Part shown: positions 6,019 through 55,792 of the stretch, one piece after another | Position numbering within the stretch: the stretch's first letter is position 1 | How the letters are laid out: each line of letters starts with the position of its first letter | Source of the DNA: Nitrospirota bacterium | GTDB taxonomy: Bacteria > Nitrospirota > Thermodesulfovibrionia > Thermodesulfovibrionales > UBA9159 | Assembly (NCBI GenBank): GCA_037441365.1 | Contig: JBBISG010000003.1 | Location: forward strand, 14,624-78,623 | Direction: 5' to 3' | DNA: 64,000 bases | Notes under the pieces: generated by a model | Database searches by the model: none | Told to the model about the DNA's origin: nothing | The model's input: the letters and a program-made list of their open reading frames with translations, nothing else | Made by a program: the position numbers and the translations under genes

Positions 6019-6051
6019 ATATAGGTCCTATAGGACTTATAAGACCTATAT
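6019..6051. repeat. REP-like element copy 2
   Basis: ATATAGGTCCTATAGGACTTATAAGACCTATAT between the sigma-54 promoter and coxIII. Confidence 0.8.
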
Positions 6052-6129
6052 AGGAAGTGAGGGAGTTTCTTATTTAGTTCCTATTTAACTATTTGTTTGT
6101 TAATTGACAAACCAAGGGAGGAGGATGAG

Positions 6130-12122: not shown

Positions 12123-12156
12123 GGATATAGGTCCTATAGGACTTATAAGACCTCTA
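12123..12156. repeat. REP-like element copy 3
   Basis: GGATATAGGTCCTATAGGACTTATAAGACCTCTA; translated spuriously as EGYRSYRTYKTSK in the track ORF 12093. Confidence 0.8.
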
Positions 12157-24552: not shown

Positions 24553-24564
24553 GATTCCTGACTT

Positions 24565-24598
24565 TATAGGTTTTATAAGTCCTATAGGACCTATATCC
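24565..24598. repeat. REP-like element copy 4 (inverted orientation)
   Basis: TATAGGTTTTATAAGTCCTATAGGACCTATATCC, 12 nt after the yjbQ-like stop. Confidence 0.8.
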
Positions 24599-31647: not shown

Positions 31648-34023
31648 ATGAAGAAACAATGGCTTGTTGAGTTTTCTGTTGACCATCCAAAAACCGTTGT
31701 CCTGCTCACAATAATTATCACTATTATCTTTATGACCCAGTTTCCAAAGATAAAGACAGACACAAATCCCAAAAACATGCTTCCTGCCACATCAGATGTA
31801 AGGGTATGGAATGATGAAGTTGACAGGATATTCGGACTTTATGAGGACACAATAGTAATCGGCATAAGAAATGAAAATGGAGTCCTGAATAAGGAGACCC
31901 TTGGAAAGATAAAGAGGATAACAGATGAGATACTGAAGATCAAGGGAGTTGCATCCAGTGATGTAAATAGCTTTCCTACAATTACAAATGTAACTGCTGA
32001 AAAGGGGACTTTAAGGGTAGCGCCTCTCATGACCGAAGTCCCAGAAACAGAAAGAAATATAAAGGCGCTTCAAAAGAACCTTTTTGAAAATCCCATACTC
32101 CTTGATCGCATTATCTCAAAGGATGGAAAGACGACAGCCATATATGTTCCCCTTGAAAAGGGAGCAAACGGTAAAGAGATTGCAGACAGGATCAGGGAGA
32201 TACTGAAGAATGAAAAAGGGGAGAAGGGCACCCAAAAAAGTCAAAGACTTTTTGGGGACCGCGGCGATGAGTTTTACATCGCAGGAGACCCTGTTGCAAG
32301 GGATACCTTTGGTGTTGAGATGTTCAAATTAATGGCGATCTTTGCTCCCCTTGCAGGTCTGATAATGCTTGTTGTGAGGTATCTCATGTTCAGGGATCTA
32401 TTCCTTTCAGTCACATTGATGATGGATGCAATGGTGAGCATTATCTGGAGCATGGGTCTTTTGATAGGGACAGGAATCCCTGTTCACATCATGAGTTCAA
32501 TGGCCCCTGTATTCCTTATGGCTATTGCAACAGACAGCATCCATATATTCAATGAATTCTACTTCCGTTTCAGAGAGAGCAAGGATAAGAGACTTGCAAT
32601 AGTAGAGACGATGAGGGCTGTTGGAAGGCCTGTCCGTTACACAGCAGCAGCAACTGCAGCAGGCTTTGCAGTCCTCCTCTTTATGCATATCATCCCTGTA
32701 AAGGTCTTTGGAGGTGTTGTCGCCTTTGGAACGATTGCCCTGAGGCTTCTGAGTTTCAGTTTCATCCCTGCTATGTTCATGTTTGTGAGCGAAAAGAAAC
32801 TTGAGGAGGCATCAAAGAGGGAGGATATAGAGGCAGGTGCATCGAGGCTTCTCAAAGGGCTTGCAAGGATAGGTGCAGAAAACCCTGTGAAGACAGCTAT
32901 TACAGGTCTTATCCTCTTTTTTGTAGCAATAGTCGGGATAACAAAGATAAATGTTAATAACAACATGGTGGACTGGTTCAAGAAGAAAAGCGAGATCCAC
33001 ATTGCTGACTCTGTTTTAAATAATGCCCTTGGCGGCACATCCCTCGGTTACATCGTGGCTATATCCTCAAAGGATGAGCATATCAAGACCCCTGAGGCAT
33101 TGAGATATATAGAAGGGCTCCAGAGGCACCTCGAAAAACTCCCTGTGGTTGGAAAGACCAGCTCAATAGCAGACCTCATAAAGAGGATAAACAGGGTGAT
33201 ACATGATAATGACCCTACTTACGACAGGGTTCCAGATTCAAAGGAGGTGATAGCCCAGTATCTATTCTTATTCAGCATGTCTGCAAGGCCCTCTGATATT
33301 GACAGCTTTATAGATTATCCAGCAAGAAGGGCAAACATGTGGGTCCAGTTAAAGACATGGGATGCAGAGGCAATGAGGGATGTGATAAAGGCTGTTGATG
33401 AGTATAAGAAGAAATCTCCTGCAGGAGACATAGAATTCAGACCTGCTGGCATTGCCTATTTCAATCTCGTCTGGAACGATGAGGTCCTCTGGGACATGGT
33501 AAAGGGCTTTGTCCTCGCAATCATAGCAGTCTTTGTGATATTGAGCCTTGACTTCCGCTCAATGAAATGGGCTTTCATTGCCTATATGCCGCTCCTGTTC
33601 ACGATTGTCCTCATCTACGGTGTAATCGGATATGTCGGCAAGGACTTTGATATGCCCATCTCCGTGCTTTCATGTCTCTCACTCGGTATGGCAGTGGACT
33701 TTGCCATTCATTTCATAAGCAGATTTAAACAGAGATTAAGAGAGAGTCAGGAGTCAGAAGTCAGGACTCAAAAGTTAAATCCTGAACTCCTTCGTGAAGC
33801 CTTGATCTGGACTGCTGCAAGGCCTGGAAAGGGAATCCTTCGTAATGCAGTTTTATTTGCATCGGCATTTTCAGTAATGCTCTTTGCACCACTTACACCC
33901 TATATAACCGTTGGTGCATTCATCGTAAGCATGATGATACTGAGTGCGATAATGACGATTATCTATCTGCCAGCCCTGATTACTTTAATGCAGGGGTGGT
34001 TATTCAAGGGAGGCACTAAATGA
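31648..34023 (+). CDS. RND-superfamily (MMPL/HpnN-like) exporter
   Basis: 791 aa; two 6-TM bundles with large loops; carries an in-frame palindromic element (32227..32260) and a heptamer-word segment (33744..33790). Confidence 0.85.
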   Translation: MKKQWLVEFSVDHPKTVVLLTIIITIIFMTQFPKIKTDTNPKNMLPATSDVRVWNDEVDRIFGLYEDTIVIGIRNENGVLNKETLGKIKRITDEILKIKGVASSDVNSFPTITNVTAEKGTLRVAPLMTEVPETERNIKALQKNLFENPILLDRIISKDGKTTAIYVPLEKGANGKEIADRIREILKNEKGEKGTQKSQRLFGDRGDEFYIAGDPVARDTFGVEMFKLMAIFAPLAGLIMLVVRYLMFRDLFLSVTLMMDAMVSIIWSMGLLIGTGIPVHIMSSMAPVFLMAIATDSIHIFNEFYFRFRESKDKRLAIVETMRAVGRPVRYTAAATAAGFAVLLFMHIIPVKVFGGVVAFGTIALRLLSFSFIPAMFMFVSEKKLEEASKREDIEAGASRLLKGLARIGAENPVKTAITGLILFFVAIVGITKINVNNNMVDWFKKKSEIHIADSVLNNALGGTSLGYIVAISSKDEHIKTPEALRYIEGLQRHLEKLPVVGKTSSIADLIKRINRVIHDNDPTYDRVPDSKEVIAQYLFLFSMSARPSDIDSFIDYPARRANMWVQLKTWDAEAMRDVIKAVDEYKKKSPAGDIEFRPAGIAYFNLVWNDEVLWDMVKGFVLAIIAVFVILSLDFRSMKWAFIAYMPLLFTIVLIYGVIGYVGKDFDMPISVLSCLSLGMAVDFAIHFISRFKQRLRESQESEVRTQKLNPELLREALIWTAARPGKGILRNAVLFASAFSVMLFAPLTPYITVGAFIVSMMILSAIMTIIYLPALITLMQGWLFKGGTK
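32227..32260. repeat. palindromic element, slightly degenerate copy inside the RND CDS
   Basis: GGCACCCAAAAAAGTC-AAA-GACTTTTTGGGGACC, translated in frame as GTQKSQRLFGD. Confidence 0.85.
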
Positions 34024-34826
34024 GAAAATCCAAGATTCTATCTATCTGTCTTCTGTTGTCTGTCCTCTGTCTTCTAACCTCTAAGGCCATTGCCATTACA
34101 CCAGAGGATGTAATGAAGAAATCACAGGCTGCGTTTCTGTATCAGGGAAAGGACTTCAAGGCACGGGTAATAATGAAACTCATAAGCAGGGGTGGTCAGG
34201 AAAGGATAAGGGAGCTCACCATGCTGAGGAAGAACTATGGTGAGCCTGGCGGCAATCAGAAATATTTTATCTATTTCTTCCAGCCTGCTGATGTAAAGGA
34301 TATGACATTTATGGTCTACAAATATCCTGCAAGAGACGATGACAGATGGCTCTTTGTGCCTGCCATAAATATGGTCAGGAGGATTGCTGCTCAGGATAAG
34401 CGCTCAAGCTTTGTTGGTTCTGATTTTACATATGAGGATGTCTCTGGAAGGGATATTGATGATGACACCCATACAATTCTGAAGGAAGAAAAACTTGGAG
34501 AAAGGGCCTGCTATGTGATAAAGAGCACACCAAAGGCAGGAGATATGGATTATAGCTACAAACTATCATGGATTGATAAGGCAAACTTTCTGCCTTTAAA
34601 AGAAGAATACTACGACAGAAAAGGTGAACTCTATAAGGTCTTCACTGCTGATGAAATAAGGGAGATAAAGGGATTTCCTACGGTGACGAAGAGGACGATG
34701 AAAAATCTCCAGAGCGGGCACAGGACAGAGGTTACATTCATAAAGGCTGATTACAACATCGGCATTGAGGATAGCCTATTTTCAGAACGTTTTTTAAAAC
34801 AACCACCAAAAAGGTGGATTGATTAA
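34020..34826 (+). CDS. LolA-like outer-membrane lipoprotein-sorting family protein
   Basis: 268 aa with signal peptide; ATGA overlap with the RND gene; typical RND-MMPL neighbour. Confidence 0.65.
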   Translation: MRKSKILSICLLLSVLCLLTSKAIAITPEDVMKKSQAAFLYQGKDFKARVIMKLISRGGQERIRELTMLRKNYGEPGGNQKYFIYFFQPADVKDMTFMVYKYPARDDDRWLFVPAINMVRRIAAQDKRSSFVGSDFTYEDVSGRDIDDDTHTILKEEKLGERACYVIKSTPKAGDMDYSYKLSWIDKANFLPLKEEYYDRKGELYKVFTADEIREIKGFPTVTKRTMKNLQSGHRTEVTFIKADYNIGIEDSLFSERFLKQPPKRWID

Positions 34827-36352: not shown

Positions 36353-38473
36353 CTACATGCTTACCCTCACCTTCCATGTGGTTCCGTCCTTTTTATCCTC
36401 AAGGATTATCCCCTGTTCCTCCAGCTCCTTTCTTACGGCGTCTGCCGTTGCCCAGTCCTTCCTCTGTCTCGCCTCCTGCCTCTGCTTTATCCTGTCGAGA
36501 ATATCTTCCCTTGTGAGGGGGATATTCTTTGTCTTCATGAGGGAGTCATACCACTCATCAGGACTTTTATTGAAGATATTAAGCACGTTGCCAGCCTGAT
36601 GCAGCAGTTCCTTTGTTTTTGATACGAGGTCCCCTGCCTTCCGACCTGATGGCCTGGTGTCGAGAAACCTGTTAACCTCCCTTATCAGCTCAAAGATATA
36701 CCCCAGTGCCTGGGCAGTATTGAAGTCGTCATCCATAGCCTCTTTAAACTTATCCAGAAATGTAGAGACCGCATCTTCAAGGGTCTTCCCCTGCAGAGAC
36801 GGCCATGACGAACCTCCCTCTCCCTTAAATTCTTCCATCCTTATCAGGGTAGTGTAATATCTATCAAGGGATGCCTCTGCTTCTCTGAGCAATGCGTCAG
36901 AAAATTCTATAGGGCTTCTGTAGTGGGTCGAAAGGAGGAAGAATCTCACAACCTCAGAGTCGAACTTATCGAGTATCTCCCTGATGGTAAAGAAGTTACC
37001 GAGGGACTTTGACATCTTCTCCTTATCGATGGTGATAAAGCCGTTGTGCAGCCAGTATTTAACAAAGGGCTTGCCGGTATATGCCTCTGACTGGGCCAAT
37101 TCATTTTCATGGTGAGGGAATATCAGGTCTGCGCCGCCACCGTGGATATCAAAGCTCTCGCCAAGGTGTTTTATGGACATGGCAGTGCATTCGATATGCC
37201 AGCCTGGCCTCCCAGGACCCCACGGGCTCTCCCATGATGGCTCACCTTCTTTCGATGACTTCCAGAGGGCAAAATCCATTGGATTCCTCTTTCTCTCGTC
37301 TACCTCAACTCTGGCACCTGCAAGCATCTCCTCAATATCCCTCTTTGAGAGCTTTCCGTAATCAGGGAATCTGTTCACCTCAAAATACACATCTCCATCT
37401 ACAACATATGCATATCCCTTATCTATCAACACCCTGACTATCTCTATTATCTCCTGTATATGTTCTGTCGCCTTCGGCTCAACATCAGCCCTTCCGACAC
37501 CGAGCCTGTCCATGTCTTTGTAGTACTCCTCTGTGTATTTCCTTGCAACCTCATCCCACTGGATTCCTTCCTGCCTTGCCCTGTTAATTATCTTGTCGTC
37601 GATGTCGGTGAAGTTCCTTATGTATCTCACATCAAAACCTCTGAATCTCAGGTATCTCCTTATGACATCAAAGACGACGGCGCTCCTTGCATGGCCGATG
37701 TGGCATAGGTCATAGACTGTGACTCCACATGCGTACATGCCAATCTTATTAGGGGTCAGAGGGATCAGATCCTCTTTTTTACCTGTTAGGGTATTGAAGA
37801 CCCTTACCACTCCTCCTTTCCCCTCAAGCCTCTCTATCCTTTTTTCGAGTTCTGATATATGCTTTTCCATCTCGCTGAATTTCTCCTCCACCGGGTCGGG
37901 CATCTGGACGCGTGCAAGGCTCTCCACAGGTCCTTCTTCCATCATCCTGAGGACCCTCTTCTTGATGACCTTTCCAGGGACACCAACGACAATGGAGTAT
38001 TCAGGCACAGAACTGAGCACCACCGCATTGGCACCTATCCTTGCATAATCGCCTATGGTGATTGCGCCCAGTACCTTGGCCCCGGCCCCCACCACTACAT
38101 GATTCCCCAGTGTTGGATGGCGCTTCCCCTTTTCCTTTCCTGTCCCGCCGAGGGTTACACCCTGATAGAGAAGGCAGTCCTCTCCGATCTCTGTGGTCTC
38201 TCCTATCACAACACCCATGCCGTGGTCTATGAAAAAGCCCGGCCCTATCCTTGCTGCAGGGTGTATCTCGATACCTGTTAAGAACCTTGCGATATGCGAG
38301 ATAAGGCGGGGGATTACAGGTATCCCGAGCCTCCAGAGGAAATGATTTATCCTGTGAATGAATATGGCATGAAATCCTGGATAGGCGAGGATTACCTCAA
38401 GGCCATTTCTCGCAGCAGGGTCTTTCTCAAAGACTGCCCTGTAGTCCCTCTTTATGTCGCTCCAGAAACCCAC
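36353..38473 (-). CDS. cysS: fused serine O-acetyltransferase / cysteinyl-tRNA synthetase
   Basis: single 706-aa ORF, GTG start; aa 1-220 CysE (hexapeptide repeats, [16 protein letters not shown]-type tail); aa 222-706 CysRS ([13 protein letters not shown]). Confidence 0.85.
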
Positions 38474-40015
38474 CTACCTCTTTTCGCTCTTTGAAGGCTC
38501 TCCTGCCTCCTTTTTTATACCCCCGATCTCCATCTTTATCATGAACCTATCGGCATTCATCCTCGCATCCCTGAATGTTGGAGATGCAAACTCGGCCTTT
38601 CTGAAGTATTTCGATGCCTCTAATTTCGGTATAAGCTCTGTAGCGGAGCTTGCATAGCCTTCTATCTCCACAGTCGTCTCGGTGACCCTCACCCTCGTGA
38701 GCCATGCAGTCTTTGGAAGTACAGATGTGAGTTCCTTGAGGATATTAAGGGCCATTGGTTTATTCTCTTTAAAGTTTCTTATCGTAGATATCTCACTGCT
38801 TATTGCCTCTATCTCTTTCTTTATATTCTCGACCTTCCTGACCGCATCCTTCCTCATTATTATCTGTTTATCGATCTCGCTGAGCCTTTTCTGTTCTATC
38901 TTCAGAGGTGTAACCATATAGAGGATGCCCATTGCGGCAATTGATAGCAGGAGGATCACTGTCAGGGCTATTGGCGTCTTTGGTCTCTCGTGGCGGCCTT
39001 TTTTCAGCAGGTCCAGCCTCTTTGCCCCAGGCCGCAATGATTCTAAAACACCTCCAATAGCAGCATAGGGCGTCCCCTCTCTCTGCGGCCCTGAGGCGAC
39101 TTTTATGTCTGTCTCATTCAGGAGGCCGAAAGGCCGGTTTATCCTCAGCTTCAGCATCTCCTTCAGTGCAGGGTTTTTGTCTTTAAATAACACCACGACC
39201 CTGGGTGACCCTCCATCTTTTTTGATGTCCTCAATTATAGGCCCTACATCCCTCATGATCGCATCGACCCTTGATTTATCATCCAGAGCCGATAGGCTGC
39301 CTGCGAAGGCTCCTGTTATTAAATCGCCTGAGAACACCGCCCCTTCATATCCCTGTTCATTTATTTCTACAAAGACCGAATCTGCTTGACCGTATACATA
39401 GCGGCATAGGGCGCCCATACCTGAGAGATTGATCGTTAGTCTGCTGACATTGAACCCCTTCTCTCTGAGGGCATTTATATAAGGCATTATAAGATCAGCC
39501 TTTGCAGCTACAATAAGGAGCGTAAGCCTTCCCTCCTTTTCCGCAAGGGTCCTGAAGTCATAGAGTGCTTCATCGGCGCTGAACGGAGTCAGCCTGTCCA
39601 TCTCGTATGAAACAACATCAGAGATATTTTCCTTTACCGTGACCGGGAACTCTGCAGTCCTGATGACGGCCCAAGCCTTCGGGATGCTCAGGGTTATGTC
39701 CGCCTTAACTGCCCTCAGATGGCTGATAGACAGGACAGCCGAAGATACAATGCCCTCTGGTTGCGGGTATCGGTCTTCATCGAGGGGATATGTTTTGAAC
39801 CCCTTTATCCTATACCGTGATAAGAACCGTGTACCGAAGGCCATTGTTATGCCTCCTTTTTCGATAGATACGCAGAGGTTCTTACCGGGATAGATCGCAT
39901 CATCAGCGAGGCTGAATGTAAGGAATCTCCATAGAGATTTCCATATGCCCTCAAGCCTTGTTGCTACTGAGGATGCAGATGTTATCAGCCGCCTTATACC
40001 CGCTGTAGCTGTCAC
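38474..40015 (-). CDS. PilM/PilN-like (GspL/M-like) assembly platform fusion protein
   Basis: 513 aa; actin-like N-domain, one TM (PIALTVILLLSIAAMGILYMV), coiled coil, PilN/GspM-like C-domain. Confidence 0.6.
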   Translation of the reverse strand: MTATAGIRRLITSASSVATRLEGIWKSLWRFLTFSLADDAIYPGKNLCVSIEKGGITMAFGTRFLSRYRIKGFKTYPLDEDRYPQPEGIVSSAVLSISHLRAVKADITLSIPKAWAVIRTAEFPVTVKENISDVVSYEMDRLTPFSADEALYDFRTLAEKEGRLTLLIVAAKADLIMPYINALREKGFNVSRLTINLSGMGALCRYVYGQADSVFVEINEQGYEGAVFSGDLITGAFAGSLSALDDKSRVDAIMRDVGPIIEDIKKDGGSPRVVVLFKDKNPALKEMLKLRINRPFGLLNETDIKVASGPQREGTPYAAIGGVLESLRPGAKRLDLLKKGRHERPKTPIALTVILLLSIAAMGILYMVTPLKIEQKRLSEIDKQIIMRKDAVRKVENIKKEIEAISSEISTIRNFKENKPMALNILKELTSVLPKTAWLTRVRVTETTVEIEGYASSATELIPKLEASKYFRKAEFASPTFRDARMNADRFMIKMEIGGIKKEAGEPSKSEKR

Positions 40016-40992
40016 TGTGTTATCGTTGACGGGCTCTTGTAGTAGACATACTGGTAGTTGCTGCCGATTAGAGCAACAACTGCCCTGATTGCATAACCCC
40101 TCTTACTGTTGCCCTTATAGCCCACGGCATCAATGGTGAATTTGTTGCTCTCTGCAATGTTTATAAATTTCATGCTCTCTGCAGGGATCCCAACCTCCTG
40201 CTGCGGATTTGTTATCCTCCTGTCAGTCCTGTAACTTATTACCCTGTCAACTATTTCGGGGGTCATGCCTGGAACTGCCATCAGGACCTCCTTCGGTGCA
40301 GCATTTACATTGATTATATTCCATCCAGAGGTGACTGTTATAAAATCATTGATGCCCTTTTTTTCAGCACTTCCATATAGTATCTCAGGCGTCATTCCTT
40401 TAACAAGCAAGAGCTCCTCCAGCGTATCGAAGTTGGCATTCTTTGCCCTGTACGGGTTTGGCAGAGACATATAATAATCGCTTTCCGCGCCGTGCAGCCT
40501 GCGGAGGTCATCTGCGTCCTTCCAGTCAAGGATAGAATCCACGATCGTATCTGCCACATCCTCCTTAACACCAGAGCTCATAAGGAGATTCTTGAGTATT
40601 ATACCAGAAGCATCTGTTAATGTGTTTATATCGAGCTTTCCGGCCTCATCCATGATCCTTACGGTGTAATATCCGTCACCGAGATGCCCTGTATAGGGCG
40701 TGCCATCTGCCCTCCAGACCTCTCTGCCCTCGGTTGTTATCATTTGATTTTTAAACATATTCCAGTAGAATGCCTCCATTATCCCCCTTTCTATCCCTGC
40801 CTCAGCAATGAATTTCTCCTCGACCCTTTCCTTAAAGGACAATGTGGAATGGGTCTCTGTCCTCGCAACAAATGAAAAGGACAGGGCAATGATCATGAGG
40901 ATTGTCAATACCCATAATACCATGAGCAGGGCGATGCCCTCCCTTTGGGAATTCAGGATTGAAGATTTGAGATTTAAATCTTTTGAGTTCAT
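40012..40992 (-). CDS. GspK-like minor pseudopilin
   Basis: start moved to MNSKDLNLKSSILNSQREG-IALLMVLWVL; INVNAAPKEVLMAVPGMTPEIVDRVISYR helix-hairpin-helix motif. Confidence 0.75.
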   Translation of the reverse strand: MNSKDLNLKSSILNSQREGIALLMVLWVLTILMIIALSFSFVARTETHSTLSFKERVEEKFIAEAGIERGIMEAFYWNMFKNQMITTEGREVWRADGTPYTGHLGDGYYTVRIMDEAGKLDINTLTDASGIILKNLLMSSGVKEDVADTIVDSILDWKDADDLRRLHGAESDYYMSLPNPYRAKNANFDTLEELLLVKGMTPEILYGSAEKKGINDFITVTSGWNIINVNAAPKEVLMAVPGMTPEIVDRVISYRTDRRITNPQQEVGIPAESMKFINIAESNKFTIDAVGYKGNSKRGYAIRAVVALIGSNYQYVYYKSPSTITQ

Positions 40993-40999
40993 CAGTACC

Positions 41000-41036
41000 G
41001 GGGTCCCCAAAAAGTCGAAGACTTTTTGGGGTGCCC
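41000..41036. repeat. palindromic element, full copy (loop GAAG)
   Basis: GGGGTCCCCAAAAAGTC-GAAG-ACTTTTTGGGGTGCCC between the gspJ-like stop and the gspK-like start. Confidence 0.9.
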
Positions 41037-41065
41037 TTTTCGTTCTGGACCCTGCATTACTATTA

Positions 41066-41794
41066 CTATCGCATTCCAACTGGCCTGTTGCCGGTTAAGG
41101 CTGTTTGCGCCATCAACCCCCTTGCCCTCATCGGGATGATCATAGAGAAATCCATTCTCCCCTTAACAAGATGGAGTCTTATCTTTTCTGGGATGCTTGT
41201 GGCATCTGTCCATTGCTCGATCCACCTTCCCTGTTGCTCTGTCGGGTCCCTGTAGAAATACTCAAAATAAATCCGGTCAAAGGTGTCCAGGAGTTTTGTC
41301 TCTCTATTGTCATTTGTGCCGATGTTGCTTTCGGATGCATATAAAACCTGACCGGGGCCCCCAAAAAGTCGAAGACTTTTTGGGGTGCCCTGCTTCCCAT
41401 AGTTAGCTGATTCTACCCTGTAAGTGACAATGACATAACCCCTCTGTCCGCTCCAGATAGAGTAGTTTGTTGAAAATTGCATTGAGTCCATGCCACCTTT
41501 AAAGTAATACTTCTTAACACCATCTTCATCATATGTAAGCGGGACCTCTGACTGAATCTGGGAATCTATGATATTTAGCGATGCCCTGATTCTCTCAAGG
41601 TATTCTATCTTTCTCTCTCCTGACTCTACAGAGCGGGCTCCGAGCCTCAAGGCGCCTCCTATGATCAGGATAATAACCCCGAGTATGGCAATAGAGATCA
41701 GCAGATCAAGAAGGGTAAAGCCCCCCTCATGGGAATTCAAGATTAAAAATTTAAAATTTAAGATTTTTGAGTTCTTTAATGTTTTATTTTTCAT
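41066..41794 (-). CDS. GspJ-like minor pseudopilin with a long leader and an in-frame palindromic element
   Basis: prepilin motif HEGG-FTLLDLLISIAILG; internal GTPKSLRLFGGPG encoded by the repeat at 41354..41390. Confidence 0.65.
   Translation of the reverse strand: MKNKTLKNSKILNFKFLILNSHEGGFTLLDLLISIAILGVIILIIGGALRLGARSVESGERKIEYLERIRASLNIIDSQIQSEVPLTYDEDGVKKYYFKGGMDSMQFSTNYSIWSGQRGYVIVTYRVESANYGKQGTPKSLRLFGGPGQVLYASESNIGTNDNRETKLLDTFDRIYFEYFYRDPTEQQGRWIEQWTDATSIPEKIRLHLVKGRMDFSMIIPMRARGLMAQTALTGNRPVGMR
41354..41390. repeat. palindromic element, full copy inside the gspJ-like CDS
   Basis: GGGGCCCCCAAAAAGTC-GAAG-ACTTTTTGGGGTGCCC. Confidence 0.9.
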
Positions 41795-41810
41795 TTTGAA
41801 TCCTGAATTA

Positions 41811-42194
41811 TCATATCTGTTTATTTGCCACCTTCAGCGTCCTCAGGGTCAGCGACCTCTCCTTTGTCCCCTTTGTCCAGCGGAGCGTCATGTCTATCTT
41901 CAGGAGTCTTACCTGAAGATTTTCTGTCCTCTCTTTCGATGTGTCGGAAACTGATACATCTATCCTGTAGCCGTCATCCGTTGCCTCACTCCACGACCTC
42001 TCTGTGAGTTTTTCATCATCGAGTATCTCCCTCATCCTTGCCTCTGCCTTCATGACAGCAGAGACATAATCGTCTGAGCTTGATACGGCCCTCAGATTGG
42101 CTGAAAAAAGCTGCAGGACCACTGTTATTGCGATGCCCAGTATCGCAATAGCCACAAGGACCTCGAGGAGGGTGAAACCCTCCATGTCCGTCAT
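41811..42194 (-). CDS. GspI-like minor pseudopilin
   Basis: 127 aa from MTDMEG-FTLLEVLVAIAILG; the 63 upstream codons in the track are translated word repeats. Confidence 0.7.
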   Translation of the reverse strand: MTDMEGFTLLEVLVAIAILGIAITVVLQLFSANLRAVSSSDDYVSAVMKAEARMREILDDEKLTERSWSEATDDGYRIDVSVSDTSKERTENLQVRLLKIDMTLRWTKGTKERSLTLRTLKVANKQI

Positions 42195-42382
42195 ACGTGT
42201 CCGTCTATCAGGGTGAGGAAGCCTGTTAGTTCGTAAGTTCGAAAGCACGGAAGGACGGAAGCAGTGAACTCCGTTGTCCGTAGTCCGTGTCCGTGTTCTA
42301 TAAACGGATAACGGAGAACGGACACGAATCACGAACTTTGCTTCTGCACTTCTGCTCTTCTGCTCTATGTTGTGCTTCTGCA
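42195..42382. repeat. heptamer-word spacer (TGTCCGT AGTCCGT GTCCGTG ... AACGGAT AACGGAG AACGGAC ... TGCTTCT GCACTTC TGCTCTT)
   Basis: 7-nt periodic degenerate arrays with inverted arms, read directly. Confidence 0.7.
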
Positions 42383-42904
42383 CTATTTTATTACAACCGA
42401 TCCAACTACAGGGTCTAACTGTATGCTCACTGACCTTCTGTTGTCAGACAGGACAATGGTTCCGCCCTCAATACCGCCTGTTGCATGAAACACAATGGAG
42501 TATTTACCACTATGAACCTCCCCTGAAAAGGGATCGATTATCCTGATATTTATACCTGATGGGATGTTTTTATCGCCCTGTCCCGCTATGCCGTAGGACA
42601 TTGAGTCAAGGTTTATCAAGACAACCTGTGTCTCACTATTAGTCCGGGCTATTGATTTAGCATGCCTGATGGTTGCTGACATCTCCCTAACGACTCCATT
42701 GAGCCTGCTTGACAGCAGGGTGTTGGCAAAAAATACGGTCGATAGACCGAGTATGAGTGTAATGAGAAAGATAACCATTATAAGCTCCAAAAGGGTGAAA
42801 CCCCTCCCATTAGAGCGATAGTGTGATAGAGCGATAGAGCGATAGTCAAATTTCCGTGAACAGTGATCCGTGAAACGTGAAACGGAACACGGAAAACGGA
42901 ACAC
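42383..42904 (-). CDS. GspH-like minor pseudopilin, start codon uncertain
   Basis: prepilin motif NGRG-FTLLELIMVIFLITLILG; no in-frame ATG near the motif; nearest in-frame start is GTG 42904 inside the repeat field (35-aa leader). Confidence 0.5.
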   Translation of the reverse strand: MFRFPCSVSRFTDHCSRKFDYRSIALSHYRSNGRGFTLLELIMVIFLITLILGLSTVFFANTLLSSRLNGVVREMSATIRHAKSIARTNSETQVVLINLDSMSYGIAGQGDKNIPSGINIRIIDPFSGEVHSGKYSIVFHATGGIEGGTIVLSDNRRSVSIQLDPVVGSVVIK

Positions 42905-42940
42905 GGCACCCCAAAAAGTCTTCGACTTTTTGGGGACCCC
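42905..42940. repeat. palindromic element, full copy in inverted orientation (loop TTCG)
   Basis: GGCACCCCAAAAAGTC-TTCG-ACTTTTTGGGGACCCC. Confidence 0.9.
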
Positions 42941-43120
42941 GGTCACGGAAAACGGATCAATAATTGGAATATCTCCCCTAACCCCGCTTTTCCAAAGAGG
43001 GAAAATCCCTCCCTTTAGCAAATGGAGGTCAGGTGGGATTTTATAAAAACATGTCGTTTCCTTATAAAAACTGTCGCTCTGTCGCTCTGCCGCACCATTA
43101 ATCCGCTGACCCATAACCCC

Positions 43121-44314
43121 TCAGAACGGCAGCTCTGTTATGCTGAATATGGCCATGAGCATCGAGACGACGATAAACCCGATTACAAGGCCCATCCCGA
43201 GAATCATTGCAGGTTCGAGGAGGCTGACAAACCTCTTTATGGATGTATTCAGGCTCTTTTCGTATGTAGAGGCTATCTTCATAAGCATGTCGTCAAGCTG
43301 ACCTGTCTCCTCACCGACCTTGATCATAGACAGCGCAAGTGGCGGAAAGACATTTGCATCGGACAGCGGAGCTGCTATGCCCTTGCCCTCTTTGACCCCC
43401 TTTGAAACTGTATCGATACAAGAGGCTATGGCCTGATTGTTTATGACATCCCTTGCATTGTTTAATGCCTGCAGCAGCGGCACTCCGCTTTTGAGGAGAG
43501 TGCCCAGCGTTCGGCAGAAACGTGCTGTCTCGAGTTTCCTTATAATATCGCCGAAGACCTTCAATTTAATAGAGTCCCATCTGTATCTGTTAGGAGCGGA
43601 TTTTATGTAATTCTTAAAGATGACCCAGCCACCGATTATTGCTGACAACACAACCCACCAGTAAGATTTCAGTGTATTGCTGAAGGTGAGAACAATCTGT
43701 GTTGGAAGGGGCAGTGAGGTCCCAAGCTCTGCAAATATTACGGAGAATTTTGGAAGGACATAGGTCAAAAGGACAATGATGGACAGACCACCTGTTACAA
43801 CAAGTATGGTTGGATATATCATTGCTGAGACCACATGGTCTTTTAATTCCTTTGAGGATTCGAGGAATTCGTTAAGTTTTTCCAGTACCACATCCAGAAC
43901 GCCACCCGCCTCACCTGCCCTTATCATGTTCACATAGATCCTCGGGAATATCCTCGAATGCCGCTGGAGTGCATCCGAAAAAGAGCTGCCCTCTCTGATG
44001 GATTTCATTACGGACTGGATTATCTCCTTCATCTCTCTGCCTTCAGTTATTTCAGAGAGGATGTTGAGGCTTCTGTCAAGGGGCATGCCTGCGCCTAAAA
44101 GAGCTGAGAGCTCTGATGTGAAGGTGAGGAGGTCTCCCCTTGCTGACCTCGACAGAAGCCTTCTTTTTATGCCCTCCTTCGGGGCGGCTATCATCAATGG
44201 AATGACGCCTGAATTCTTCAGCCTTTCGACAGCAGCCCTCTGGTCTGCTGCCTCGATAACCCCTTCCACAATCGCACCCTCCATAGTGGTTGCCCTGTAA
44301 GAGAAGTGAGCCAA
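43121..44314 (-). CDS. gspF: type II secretion / type IV pilus platform protein GspF/PilC
   Basis: 397 aa; duplicated T2SF domains, 3 TMs. Confidence 0.9.
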   Translation of the reverse strand: MAHFSYRATTMEGAIVEGVIEAADQRAAVERLKNSGVIPLMIAAPKEGIKRRLLSRSARGDLLTFTSELSALLGAGMPLDRSLNILSEITEGREMKEIIQSVMKSIREGSSFSDALQRHSRIFPRIYVNMIRAGEAGGVLDVVLEKLNEFLESSKELKDHVVSAMIYPTILVVTGGLSIIVLLTYVLPKFSVIFAELGTSLPLPTQIVLTFSNTLKSYWWVVLSAIIGGWVIFKNYIKSAPNRYRWDSIKLKVFGDIIRKLETARFCRTLGTLLKSGVPLLQALNNARDVINNQAIASCIDTVSKGVKEGKGIAAPLSDANVFPPLALSMIKVGEETGQLDDMLMKIASTYEKSLNTSIKRFVSLLEPAMILGMGLVIGFIVVSMLMAIFSITELPF

Positions 44315-45850
44315 CTACGCCTCCTGTGTCACCCTGAGAACCTCGCTGAGGGTCGTCATGCCCGCCCTTATCTTCTCAGCCCCATCCTCAAGCAGGGTTC
44401 TCATGCCCTGCTGCCTTGCCACTTCCCTTATCTGGTTGGAATCAGCATTTTTTAGTATAAGCCTTCTTATATCATCATCGACCACGAGGAGCTCGAATAT
44501 CCCTGTCCTGCCATAGTAACCTGTGAAGGCGCATTTCTCGCATCCCTTTCCCTTATAAAGGGCGATATCATGGTTAAGTCCGAGGATGCTGAGCTCTTCC
44601 CTGTCGGCGATTGATCGATCAACCTCTCTACAGTCAGGGCATATAACCCTTACGAGCCTCTGTGCAAGAATTCCCCTTATGGTGGATGACAGCAGGAAGT
44701 TTTCAACGCCCATGTCAAGGAGTCTTGTTATCGAGCTTGGCGCGTCATTGGTATGGAGGGTTGAAAAGACGAGGTGTCCTGTGAGGGCAGACTGAATAGC
44801 TATTTCTGCAGTCTCGAGGTCTCTGATCTCACCTATCATGATGATGTCGGGGTCCTGCCTGACAATGTGCCTCAGTGCACTGGCAAAGTTCAGGCCTATC
44901 TTTGGTTTGACCTGTATCTGGTTTACCCCTTTTAGCTGATACTCGACAGGGTCCTCAACAGTGATAATCTTTTTGTCAGGGGAGTTTATCTTATCGAGCG
45001 CTCCGTAAAGAGTTGTTGTCTTTCCGCTTCCTGTGGGTCCTGTAACGAGTATAATGCCATTAGGCTTCTTAATGAGGCTGTTAAAGGCAGAGAGGGTTTG
45101 GGGTGGAAATCCGAGCAGGTCAAGGTCTATCACTATGCCTTCCTTGCGGAGTATCCTCATCACAACGCTTTCGCCATAAAGAACGGGGATTGTTGATACC
45201 CTCAGGTCTATCTCCCTTTCATTAATTCTCAGTCTTATGCGGCCATCCTGCGGCAGCCTCCTCTCTGCGATATTCAGTTTTGCCATTATCTTTATCCTCG
45301 AGACGATTGCTGCCTGCAGTCTCTTTGGGGTGGACTCTATGTCGTGCAGCACACCATCTATCCTGAATCTCACCTTCAATTCATCCTCAAACGGTTCTAT
45401 ATGGATGTCTGAAGCCCTGCTCTCAACAGCCCTCGTTATAAGCAGGTTAACGAGCTTTATTATCGGGGCCTCTGAGGCAAGATCCTTCAGGTGCCCTATG
45501 TCTTCTTCCTCTTCCCTGAGAAACTCTATGCCGCTGTCGCCTATATCCTCGATTATCCTGTTTATATTCTGGGACTCCTGGCCGAAGAATCTGGATATGT
45601 AGTCATCTATCGCCTTGATGTCGCTTGTATAAATTGAGACATCGGCTCCGGTTGCCACCCTGAGTGCATCTATAGTCGCCCTGTCTTCAGGATCGGCCAT
45701 CACTACGACGAGTGCATTGTCTTTGAGATCCAGAGGGATTACCCTGTTTTCACGGATAAAGCGTGATGATATCCCATCGAGGACAAATGGAACCTTCGGA
45801 AGCCCGTCGGGGTTTAGATAGGGAATGTCTTTAATCCTCTGGTGGTTCAC
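44315..45850 (-). CDS. gspE: type II secretion / type IV pilus ATPase GspE
   Basis: 511 aa; Walker A GPTGSGKTTT, Asp/His boxes, tetracysteine CPDC...CEKC. Confidence 0.9.
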   Translation of the reverse strand: MNHQRIKDIPYLNPDGLPKVPFVLDGISSRFIRENRVIPLDLKDNALVVVMADPEDRATIDALRVATGADVSIYTSDIKAIDDYISRFFGQESQNINRIIEDIGDSGIEFLREEEEDIGHLKDLASEAPIIKLVNLLITRAVESRASDIHIEPFEDELKVRFRIDGVLHDIESTPKRLQAAIVSRIKIMAKLNIAERRLPQDGRIRLRINEREIDLRVSTIPVLYGESVVMRILRKEGIVIDLDLLGFPPQTLSAFNSLIKKPNGIILVTGPTGSGKTTTLYGALDKINSPDKKIITVEDPVEYQLKGVNQIQVKPKIGLNFASALRHIVRQDPDIIMIGEIRDLETAEIAIQSALTGHLVFSTLHTNDAPSSITRLLDMGVENFLLSSTIRGILAQRLVRVICPDCREVDRSIADREELSILGLNHDIALYKGKGCEKCAFTGYYGRTGIFELLVVDDDIRRLILKNADSNQIREVARQQGMRTLLEDGAEKIRAGMTTLSEVLRVTQEA

Positions 45851-55291: not shown

Positions 55292-55766
55292 TTTGAAGAT
55301 GGAAGTGGATCGTGCAAAGGCAGAGGGGAAAAGGGTCGTCTTTACCAATGGCTGCTTCGATATCCTTCATGTAGGCCATGTGAGGTATCTGAGGGAGGCA
55401 AGGGGCTTTGGCGATCTCCTTGTTGTTGCCATTAATACAGACCGTTCTGTTTCGAAGATAAAGAAAGGAAGGCCAATAATCCCCGAGGCGCAGAGGGCAG
55501 AGGTGATCGCCAGTCTTGAGATGGTCGATCTTGTTACCCTCTTTGATGAGGATACACCTTACGAATTGATAAGTTTCCTCAGGCCTGATGTGCTTGTGAA
55601 GGGCGGTGACTGGAGGGTGGAGGAGATCGTTGGCTCTGACATCGTTGCAGAAACCCACAGCCTTCCGTATATCAGGGGAGTATCGACAACAGAGATAATA
55701 GAGAAGATTAAGAGGGCTTCAGAAGTTAAAAGTCGAAGGTTGAAAGTCAAAAGTCCTCGACTTTAA
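55260..55766 (+). CDS. D-beta-D-heptose-1-phosphate adenylyltransferase (RfaE domain II type cytidylyltransferase)
   Basis: FTNGCFDILHVGHVRYL; C-terminal 14 aa EVKSRRLKVKSPRL encoded by the left arm of a word hairpin. Confidence 0.8.
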   Translation: MTMGRILNWDDLKMEVDRAKAEGKRVVFTNGCFDILHVGHVRYLREARGFGDLLVVAINTDRSVSKIKKGRPIIPEAQRAEVIASLEMVDLVTLFDEDTPYELISFLRPDVLVKGGDWRVEEIVGSDIVAETHSLPYIRGVSTTEIIEKIKRASEVKSRRLKVKSPRL

Positions 55767-55792
55767 AACTTTTAACTTTAAACTTTCGACTT
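55723..55792. repeat. heptamer-word inverted array (AGTTAAA AGTCGAA GGTTGAA AGTCAAA AGTCCTC | GACTTTA AAACTTT TAACTTT AAACTTT CGACTTA)
   Basis: read directly; the rfaE-II stop codon (55764..55766) lies at the hairpin centre. Confidence 0.7.

Follow-up and report, generated by a model that had tools for sequence, protein, structure and literature searches.

Introduction

Rickettsia palindromic elements (RPEs) are selfish repeats that occur in frame within protein-coding genes, according to the summary of Ogata et al. (2000) that is given in PMC10969869. Tandem heptamers located next to start codons have been described as the short tandemly repeated repetitive (STRR) sequences of cyanobacteria and as the TAACTGA repeats of Beggiatoaceae (PMC4679880), and Geobacter metallireducens carries heptanucleotide multicopy elements within and between genes (PMC2700814). 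Additionally, type IVb and Flp prepilins have leader peptides of 15-30 aa, that of Flp1 being 26 aa long (PMC4471445). Here we analyze a stretch of 64,000 nucleotides from a Nitrospirota bacterium (assembly GCA_037441365.1, contig JBBISG010000003.1, positions 14,624 to 78,623), hereafter called the window, in whose coordinates all positions are given. In the window, a field of short repeats separates gspF, which encodes a platform protein, from gspH, which encodes a minor pseudopilin of the type II secretion system (T2SS) type. We propose that gspH is probably translated from an ATG at position 43114 that is coupled to gspF, straight through the repeats, and that prepilin peptidase then removes a leader of about 105 residues.

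An in-frame repeat insertion behind a conserved start codon

A previous reading of the window, made from the sequence alone and referred to below as the sequence-only reading, had described a repeat-only interval between gspF and gspH, with no pseudopilin motif after the gspF stop until NGRG-FTLLEL, no in-frame ATG, and GTG 42904, with a 35-aa leader, as the closest in-frame start; gspH was consequently said to lack a canonical start. The next prepilin motif after the gspF stop is indeed NGRG/FTLLEL, with its Gly codon at 42802 (here and below, the slash marks the predicted cleavage site), and no start codon is close to this site, the nearest one in frame being GTG 42904, 34 codons upstream. 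However, ATG 43114 falls within that interval, in the reading frame of the pilin. This ATG is positionally homologous to the gspH starts of the related loci L002 (MVMNY..) and L087 (MVMGQ.., MVMGQGEK...), where L designates loci collected from relatives. It is preceded by a Shine-Dalgarno-like GAGGGG motif, and the relatives have GAGAGG at the same place, so that the ancestral gspF-coupled ATG and its GAGG motif are both retained in frame.

The sequence-only reading had also suggested that a syntenic comparison would tell whether the field is an insertion, and the comparison with L002 answers in the affirmative. In this closest relative, whose flanking genes are 93-94% identical to those of the window, the gspF stop is followed after 6 nt by the gspH ATG and by the short leader MVMNYESLKEKG/F. 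In the blastn alignment 307 nt of the window correspond to 28 nt of L002, so that the window is longer by 279 nt (93 codons), a length divisible by 3. Elsewhere in the operon, the same comparison detected four more insertions or expansions of repeats, all of them at pseudopilin 5' ends or inside gspJ.

Two copies of the hexamer TAATGG, at 43100-43095 and 42812-42807, flank the field at a distance of 288 nt (96 codons); the probability that the two flanks share a 6-mer by chance is about 0.016. When one copy of TAATGG is removed together with the 282 nt between the copies, the sequence reads ATG GGT CAG CGG ATT AAT GGG AGG GGT TTC, and the reconstructed empty-site allele is ATGGGTCAGCGGATTAATGGGAGGGGTTTCACC. 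As judged from this reconstruction, the pre-insertion leader would have been MGQRINGRG/FTLLEL, a canonical basic leader of nine residues, with the insert placed between its codons 6 and 7.

Over the whole field the pilin frame contains no stop in 105 codons, whereas the other two frames of the same strand contain 2 and 8 stops, and those of the opposite strand 5-7. With the stop rate averaged over the other frames, the Poisson probability of finding no stop in 105 codons is about 0.004. Because the 288-nt insert (96 codons) is stop-free in the pilin frame, the gene should still start at its original ATG 43114. The resulting open reading frame (ORF) of 243 aa would, on the comparative evidence, be the gspH gene itself. 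Its leader includes the peptides IPPDLHLLK and SGVRGDIPIIDPFSVTGVPK, and a count from the ORF translation gives 17 Lys/Arg against 8 Asp/Glu, with no long hydrophobic stretch.

Alternative start sites

The only canonical in-frame starts between ATG 43114 and the cleavage site are TTG 43021, GTG 42946 and GTG 42904, and any of them could in principle serve as the start of gspH, giving a leader of 35 to 74 residues. GTG 42904 has a GGGG 4 nt upstream, but none of the three codons is preceded by a clear Shine-Dalgarno motif, and both GTG codons lie at the base of the palindrome hairpin. An internal start also leaves unexplained the 70 stop-free codons upstream of GTG 42904, which are in frame with the conserved ATG, and we regard it as unlikely.

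Another candidate, ATG 42810 (ATGGGAGGGG), would become the start, with the product MGGG/FTLLEL, if a G were missing from the sequence or if a programmed -1 frameshift occurred at the G run. The distance of this ATG from the Gly codon, 8 nt, is shared by an ATG in gspJ and in L036, and L095 and L012 contain MGGGAG/F or VGGGAG/F in frame. Logan contigs of the sequencing run SRR11582170 end or start within the repeats and do not cover the G run at 42802-42805. On the other side, no Shine-Dalgarno motif precedes ATG 42810, an uncharged leader of four residues is atypical, and the open frame upstream remains unexplained. Homopolymer errors are not evident either, since the other long ORFs of the window are intact and its alignments with L002 are almost devoid of single-base gaps. 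We therefore give this explanation little credence.

A start downstream of the cleavage motif, at TTG 42790 or ATG 42778, appears even less probable. The in-frame TTG follows the strong Shine-Dalgarno-like sequence GGGAGGGG by 12 nt and would yield an unprocessed, N-terminally truncated GspH (M-ELIMV...). Such a product would lack Phe1-Leu4, and its conserved Glu would be at +2 instead of +5, although G1, F2, L4, L5 and E6 are invariant in the alignment of the family; the purine-rich motif simply corresponds to the codons for G-R-G. A non-canonical ATC start 12 codons before the cleavage site was considered as well and was rejected, as it has no Shine-Dalgarno motif and is not needed.

Open leader frames in related loci

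The intervals of relatives were analyzed for gaps of 74-400 nt, counted as de-duplicated clusters, with the other two forward frames serving as internal controls. Between gspF and gspH, the pilin frame was stop-free in 22 of 40 clusters and the other frames in 7 and 4 (Fisher p = 6e-6). The bias was also present between gspH and gspI (24/30 clusters in the pilin frame vs 2/30 and 0/30). An ATG within -2 to +20 nt of the gspF stop was found in the pilin frame of 21 of the 40 clusters, compared with 3 and 14 in the other frames. These counts indicate that intervals of this type are kept open in the pilin frame, and the field, described as repeat-only, is not simply non-coding. The gaps are bimodal: they are either fully open, with a start beside the preceding stop, or contain several stops and a new ATG 4-9 codons before G/F. 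The open leaders are built of repeats, being 39-59 codons long for gspH and about 75 for gspI, and consist of heptamer arrays, module-B-like elements and widely dispersed motifs that read MDSRLRGND, NPPIPPFTKGG or SEARNLVLRLL. In L019 and L030 the distal ATG is the sole canonical in-frame start (ATG, GTG or TTG); in L128 the nearest one is a TTG 26 codons upstream.

The ratio of non-synonymous to synonymous substitution rates (dN/dS) is 0.57-1.03 in the leaders and 0.14-0.19 in the mature parts, so that the leaders show nearly neutral evolution and their amino-acid sequence is almost free; selection seems to act on nothing but the openness of the frame. The dS of the leaders is below that of the mature parts, and the leader DNA or RNA itself seems to be constrained while the frame is kept.

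These data also bear on the idea that the insertion uncoupled gspH from its start and left a recent, undecayed pseudogene or silent gene, open by luck. Such silencing would agree with the lack of a start near the cleavage site, with a leader length outside the known range, and with the recent date of the insertion, which is absent from the ~93% identical L002. However, chance does not readily account for the stop-free pilin frame, the length of the insert is a multiple of 3, and a bias towards open frames is found in dozens of independent relatives. Furthermore, the mature part of gspH compared with that of L002 has a dN/dS of 0.19, similar to the neighbouring genes, and no lesion. We consider silencing improbable. 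None of the alternatives explains a stop-free field with a length of 3n that is joined to a conserved ATG.

Two related loci show other arrangements. In L036 (3925-4001; a Syntrophorhabdus metagenome-assembled genome, MAG), the 76-nt gap between gspF and gspH is open in the pilin frame without any in-frame ATG, GTG or TTG, and an ATG that is out of frame (cATGGGTTTACC) has the offset of the one in the window. In L169 (3001-3897; a Thermodesulfovibrionales MAG, protein P0015), an ORF with a DUF559 (Vsr-like endonuclease) domain, located between gspF and gspH, is fused in frame to gspH; the fused ORF has 298 aa, with G/FTLLEL at residue ~160 and no closer start, so that a whole gene occupies the position of the leader.

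The gspH product and the absence of gspG

The sequence NGRG/FTLLELIMVIFLITLILGL has Gly at -1, Phe at +1, Glu at +5 and a hydrophobic helix of ~20 residues, as expected of a class III signal. The N_methyl family PF07963 matches residues 101-124 of the gspH ORF with 22.3 bits (cut-off 21.2), and close relatives give a weak match to PF12019. A profile search of PDB with the GspH alignment matched just the N-terminal helix of assorted pilins and could not separate GspG from GspH; therefore, a fold search was used. The AlphaFold2 (AF2) model of mature GspH has a predicted local distance difference test (pLDDT) score of 84, and its top PDB matches were XcpH, EpsH, FimU and E. coli GspH, with probabilities of 0.75-1.0 and template modelling (TM) scores of 0.4-0.69, although with E values of only 7e-3 to 0.4. 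The possibility that this gene is the missing major pseudopilin was rejected, since the fold matches are to XcpH, EpsH, FimU and GspH and not to GspG. Hundreds of homologues were found under the source names Nitrospirota or Thermodesulfovibrionia; these are typically 144-157 aa long and have leaders such as MMKNNG/F or MQNAKIKIKNSG/F.

The sequence-only reading had expected gspG between gspF and gspH and had noted its absence from the cluster. The absence was confirmed, but the expectation does not hold for this lineage. We surveyed 105 non-identical gspF-gspH junctions from Nitrospirota/Thermodesulfovibrionia relatives at ≥45% identity; in all of them gspF is followed directly by gspH, the gap being 20-274 nt except for one of 540 nt, and there is never room for gspG. 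The conserved order of the lineage is gspE-gspF-gspH-gspI-gspJ-gspK-pilMN-like; L002 has the order E-F-H-I-J-K-PilMN-like, without gspG. A tblastn search with a Vibrio cholerae EpsG sequence as the query detected gspG in 36 other loci, which serve as a positive control; in the 64-kb window the query matched the N-terminal helices of gspI and gspH, but no C-terminal domain of the GspG type was found. Only distant loci (L050-L086) had a gspG located immediately before gspH; most of them are proteobacterial, and they include a second system in some Nitrospirota. As its absence from the gspF-gspH junction is the normal architecture of the lineage, the alarm about gspG is removed: the gene is absent from the cluster of the window, but it is not missing from this spot.

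A canonical gspG is present ~3 kb upstream of gspH, before gspE, in L030 (660-1052) and L033 (526-921), which belong to the same operon family but are more distant. This suggests an ancestral order G-E-F-H, from which gspG has since been lost or moved in the lineage of the window.

Proposed expression of gspH and points that weigh against it

In the proposed mechanism, gspH would be co-transcribed with gspE and gspF, and ribosomes terminating at the gspF stop would reinitiate at ATG 43114 and read through the repeats. The prepseudopilin would then carry a basic cytoplasmic leader of ~105 residues; because of its excess of Lys/Arg and its lack of a long hydrophobic stretch, the leader should stay in the cytoplasm. 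The downstream helix would insert as a signal anchor, and prepilin peptidase would cut after Gly105 (a predicted cleavage), releasing a normal GspH. In the lineage, with its operon order E-F-H-I-J-K-L, gspG would never have occupied the position between gspF and gspH. Whereas the insertion, the frame, the conserved start, the synteny and the excess of open frames across the family are shown, we infer both that translation begins at 43114 and that a leader of this length is cleaved.

Several observations weigh against this proposal. Class III leaders in characterized systems have 6-26 aa (PMC4471445); the 105 aa given by the conserved ATG are about four times as long. No prepilin peptidase (Peptidase_A24) was found among the scanned ORFs of the 64-kb window. 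Moreover, about 40% of the relatives with long gaps have in-frame stops and use a proximal ATG; read-through is therefore common, not universal. The predicted RNA fold of the field is very stable (-130.6 kcal/mol, z = -5.3), with the octamer arms forming the closing stem of a multi-hairpin domain, and it pairs the GAGGGG motif, which could hinder initiation or elongation. Finally, the Logan contigs of SRR11582170, although identical to the window, break at repeats (L001 ends inside the palindrome and L088 starts in the field between gspH and gspI), and the portion from the palindrome to gspH is without independent assembly support.

More generally, in this T2SS-like operon family of Nitrospirota/Thermodesulfovibrionia, selfish repeats, and in one MAG a DUF559 gene (L169), may use the cleavable class III leaders of minor pseudopilins as landing pads in frame, with only the open frame being selected and with leaders of 40-160 residues, well above the known 6-26; on this generalization we are evenly balanced between acceptance and doubt. 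The 105-residue gspH leader of the window is the longest repeat-built case that we have seen. In addition, the ratio in which the minor pseudopilins are made might be set by the stable hairpins that lie between these translationally coupled genes.

Composition of the insert

The mosaic of octamers, heptamers, a hairpin-rich segment and a palindrome that was listed in the sequence-only reading is present in full in the 320 nt after the gspF stop (Table 1), and it is composed of small repeats of which this genome has many. Tandem Repeats Finder (TRF) reported six rows in the field, and over the whole window 26 arrays with a period of 7-9 were counted, compared with 0-6 in 20 dinucleotide shuffles. 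The octamer arrays reported by TRF, CTGTCGCT at 43071-43093 and TAGAGCGA at 42811-42845, had been read as near reverse complements of each other; they are inverted, with 29-nt arms that are 79% complementary and 223 nt apart. The palindrome has 12-nt perfect arms and five copies in the window, against none by chance. Relatives of the ~70-nt hairpin element occur in other Nitrospirota loci: L017 is 84% identical over 74 nt, L002 has a partial copy, and the leader of L128 contains one.

The field had further been interpreted as a composite resembling a miniature inverted-repeat transposable element (MITE). The inverted octamer arms and the TAATGG flanks argue for this idea as regards the outer unit, the flanks being readable as a target-site duplication (TSD), but neither the window nor the 168 collected loci yielded another copy of the entire composite. 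Within the 64 kb only the palindrome module recurs; the octamer arms do not. In the field between gspH and gspI, the seed motifs of the arrays are present as single units in L002, and the arrays look as if they had grown in situ from them. A simple TSD was rejected for the other insertions, whose alignments with L002 instead suggest such growth. We see the insert as a nested mosaic rather than one mobile unit, because only the palindrome module recurs and the neighbouring arrays appear to have grown in situ; in the gspH field, the loop of an inverted-array hairpin has been filled by other elements.

A scan of 40800-43300 against Rfam at E ≤ 1 gave nothing relevant, with one sub-threshold microRNA match on a palindrome copy, and no promoter-like or terminator-like site above chance was found in the field.

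Table 1. Features of the gsp cluster and of the repeat field.
Feature	Positions	Strand	Basis or remark
gspE-type ATPase (MshEN + T2SSE domains)	44315..45850	-	Pfam PF00437, E = 1.5e-147
gspF platform protein	43121..44314	-	Pfam PF00482, E = 5e-64; TGA stop 43123-43121
GAGGGG, Shine-Dalgarno-like motif overlapping the gspF stop	43117..43122	-	alignment with L002, L087
ATG, proposed gspH start	43112..43114	-	6 nt after gspF stop
Full gspH ORF, 243 aa (putative 105-aa leader + 138-aa mature GspH/FimU-type minor pseudopilin)	42383..43114	-	
Inserted composite with flanking 6-nt direct repeats TAATGG	42807..43100	-	blastn vs L002
Octamer array A, (AGAGCGAC)n, left arm resembling a terminal inverted repeat (TIR)	43071..43095	-	TRF; inverted pair; pattern search, 0 expected
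AT-rich segment with GTTTTTATAA twice; small hairpin in predicted fold	43040..43070	-	
~70-nt nested-hairpin dispersed element, read as KIPPDLHLLKGGIFPLWKSGVRGDI	42971..43042	-	
Heptamer words CCGTTTT/CCGTGAC, 5' side of palindrome	42944..42959	-	direct-repeat family D4
45-nt palindrome, core CCCCAAAAAGTC-GAA-GACTTTTTGGGG	42899..42945	-	hairpin z = -4.4
Heptamer arrays, GTTCCGT / TTCACGG units	42853..42906	-	TRF
Octamer array B, (CTATCGCT)n, right TIR-like arm	42811..42850	-	TRF score 56
Out-of-frame ATG (ATGGGAGGGGTTTCACC); an extra G or a -1 shift would give MGGG/FTLLEL	42808..42810	-	sequence
Predicted prepilin peptidase cleavage site Gly(-1)/Phe(+1), context SNGRG/FTLLEL	42797..42802	-	
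Second repeat field, gspH-gspI interval	42180..42382	-	
gspI-like pseudopilin (MTDMEG/FTLLEV)	41811..42194	-	
gspJ-like pseudopilin, 25-aa repeat-derived leader	41066..41794	-	
gspK (T2SSK domain)	40012..40992	-	
PilM/PilN-like (GspL-like) assembly protein, with which the cluster ends in the window	38474..40015	-	

Other repeats in the window

In gspJ, a 39-nt copy of the palindrome, exactly 13 codons (KQGTPKSLRLFGGP), is located in frame within 41351-41391 and is absent in L002. In-frame, stop-free intragenic copies that are absent from the orthologue, as known for RPEs, are represented in the window by these 13 codons and by the 96 codons of the gspH leader. The field between gspH and gspI combines an octamer array of GCAGAAG with heptamer arrays in inverted orientation (hairpin z = -4.8). 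Its gspI frame is free of stops, compared with 2-4 in the others, and the field exceeds that of L002 by 34 + 108 nt (142 nt). A further palindrome copy is found at 40997-41041, just upstream of the gspK ATG. The leader-coding regions of gspK and gspJ (40925-40990 and 41709-41774) have in common a 66-nt segment with 76% identity (NSK.LN.K..ILNS..EG). As this segment with its AATTTAA heptamers is common to both, the two leaders come from the same repeat material.

Repeats were also observed outside the gsp genes. In the MMPL transporter ORF (31648-34023, plus strand), a palindrome copy at 32231-32257 contributes the in-frame sequence EKGTQKSQRLFGDRG, and a heptamer array of GAGTCAG units at 33744-33775 the sequence ESQESEVRTQK. 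In a LolA-like ORF (34020-34826), the signal peptide has a hydrophobic core (SICLLLSVLCLL) that is specified by a TTCTGTC heptamer array (34036-34075); here, too, a tandem repeat has given rise to a cleavable signal. Inverted pairs of 7-9-mer arrays that form stable hairpins are located at 2903-2983, 55719-55792, 6020-6087, 12126-12153 and 24563-24588, and such hairpins lie directly upstream of the starts of glutamine synthetase (ATG 3015), mfd (ATG 55802) and COX3 (TTG 6097). The TATAGGACC nonamer family recurs at three loci of the window.

Gene context

The ATPase gspE and the platform gene gspF of a canonical gsp operon are present in the window, and the genes for the minor pseudopilins H, I, J and K and for an L/M assembly protein follow in order, represented by three N_methyl proteins, the T2SSK domain and a PilN/PilM-like protein. 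The three prepilin-type genes have G/F motifs at 42802, 42179 and 41722. The same order of the minor pseudopilin and assembly genes is found in L002-L004 and L006. As regards the secretin gspD and gspC, no secretin domain was found among the scanned ORFs of the 64-kb window.

The ORF at 36353-38473 (minus strand) encodes a 706-aa fusion (CysE-CysS) of a serine-acetyltransferase-like hexapeptide domain with cysteinyl-tRNA synthetase. This fusion is kept in L002 and L003, and in L002 it follows the PilMN-like gene.

Comparison with known systems

It is important to mention that annotation pipelines will call this gspH a pseudogene, start it at some internal GTG chosen arbitrarily, or list an odd protein of 243 aa. 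If the proposed reading is true, prepilin peptidases and the signal recognition particle (SRP)/Sec insertion route must handle leaders at least four times as long as any characterized one. The locus would also provide, in a host other than Rickettsia, a clean case of selfish repeats that persist within genes; they would occupy a portion of the protein that is discarded, with measurable constraint limited to frame and stop codons.

Like RPEs, the elements of the window are short dispersed hairpin repeats inside ORFs, with the frame kept and without stops (gspJ, the MMPL ORF and the gspH leader). Unlike RPEs, to which they have no sequence relationship, they are much shorter (39-72 nt) and belong to several families, including tandem 7-8-mers; moreover, their main site is a cleavable class III leader and not a mature protein, and the host is a free-living Nitrospirota and not a Rickettsia.

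The resemblance to the STRR, TAACTGA and Geobacter heptamers lies in the 2-6 copies of 7-nt units just upstream of start codons, which occasionally enter ORFs, and in a stop content that depends on orientation. In contrast to these systems, the window has many different units of 7-9 nt and no single dominant heptamer, and its arrays are often paired in inverted orientation, forming long hairpins, and are read in frame as a leader peptide.

MITEs and the mosaics of repetitive extragenic palindromic sequences (REP) and bacterial interspersed mosaic elements (BIME) have in common with the insert the small size, the strong secondary structure and the nested modules, and the octamer arms (29 nt, 79% complementary) and the TAATGG duplication of the insert are reminiscent of their terminal inverted repeats and TSDs. 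They differ in that the arms in the window are themselves tandem arrays and that neighbouring arrays appear to have grown in situ; no gene for a transposase or a REP-associated tyrosine transposase (RAYT) was seen.

As in type IVb and Flp prepilins, the class III leader is hydrophilic and positively charged and ends with Gly, and it is followed by a hydrophobic helix with Glu5. However, the leader has ~105 aa in the window and 39-59 aa in relatives, is built of repeats and is not conserved in sequence, and the gspH product is a T2SS-type GspH/FimU minor pseudopilin rather than a type IVb pilin. What is new about the case is that these known phenomena come together in a class III leader peptide, and one of unusual length.

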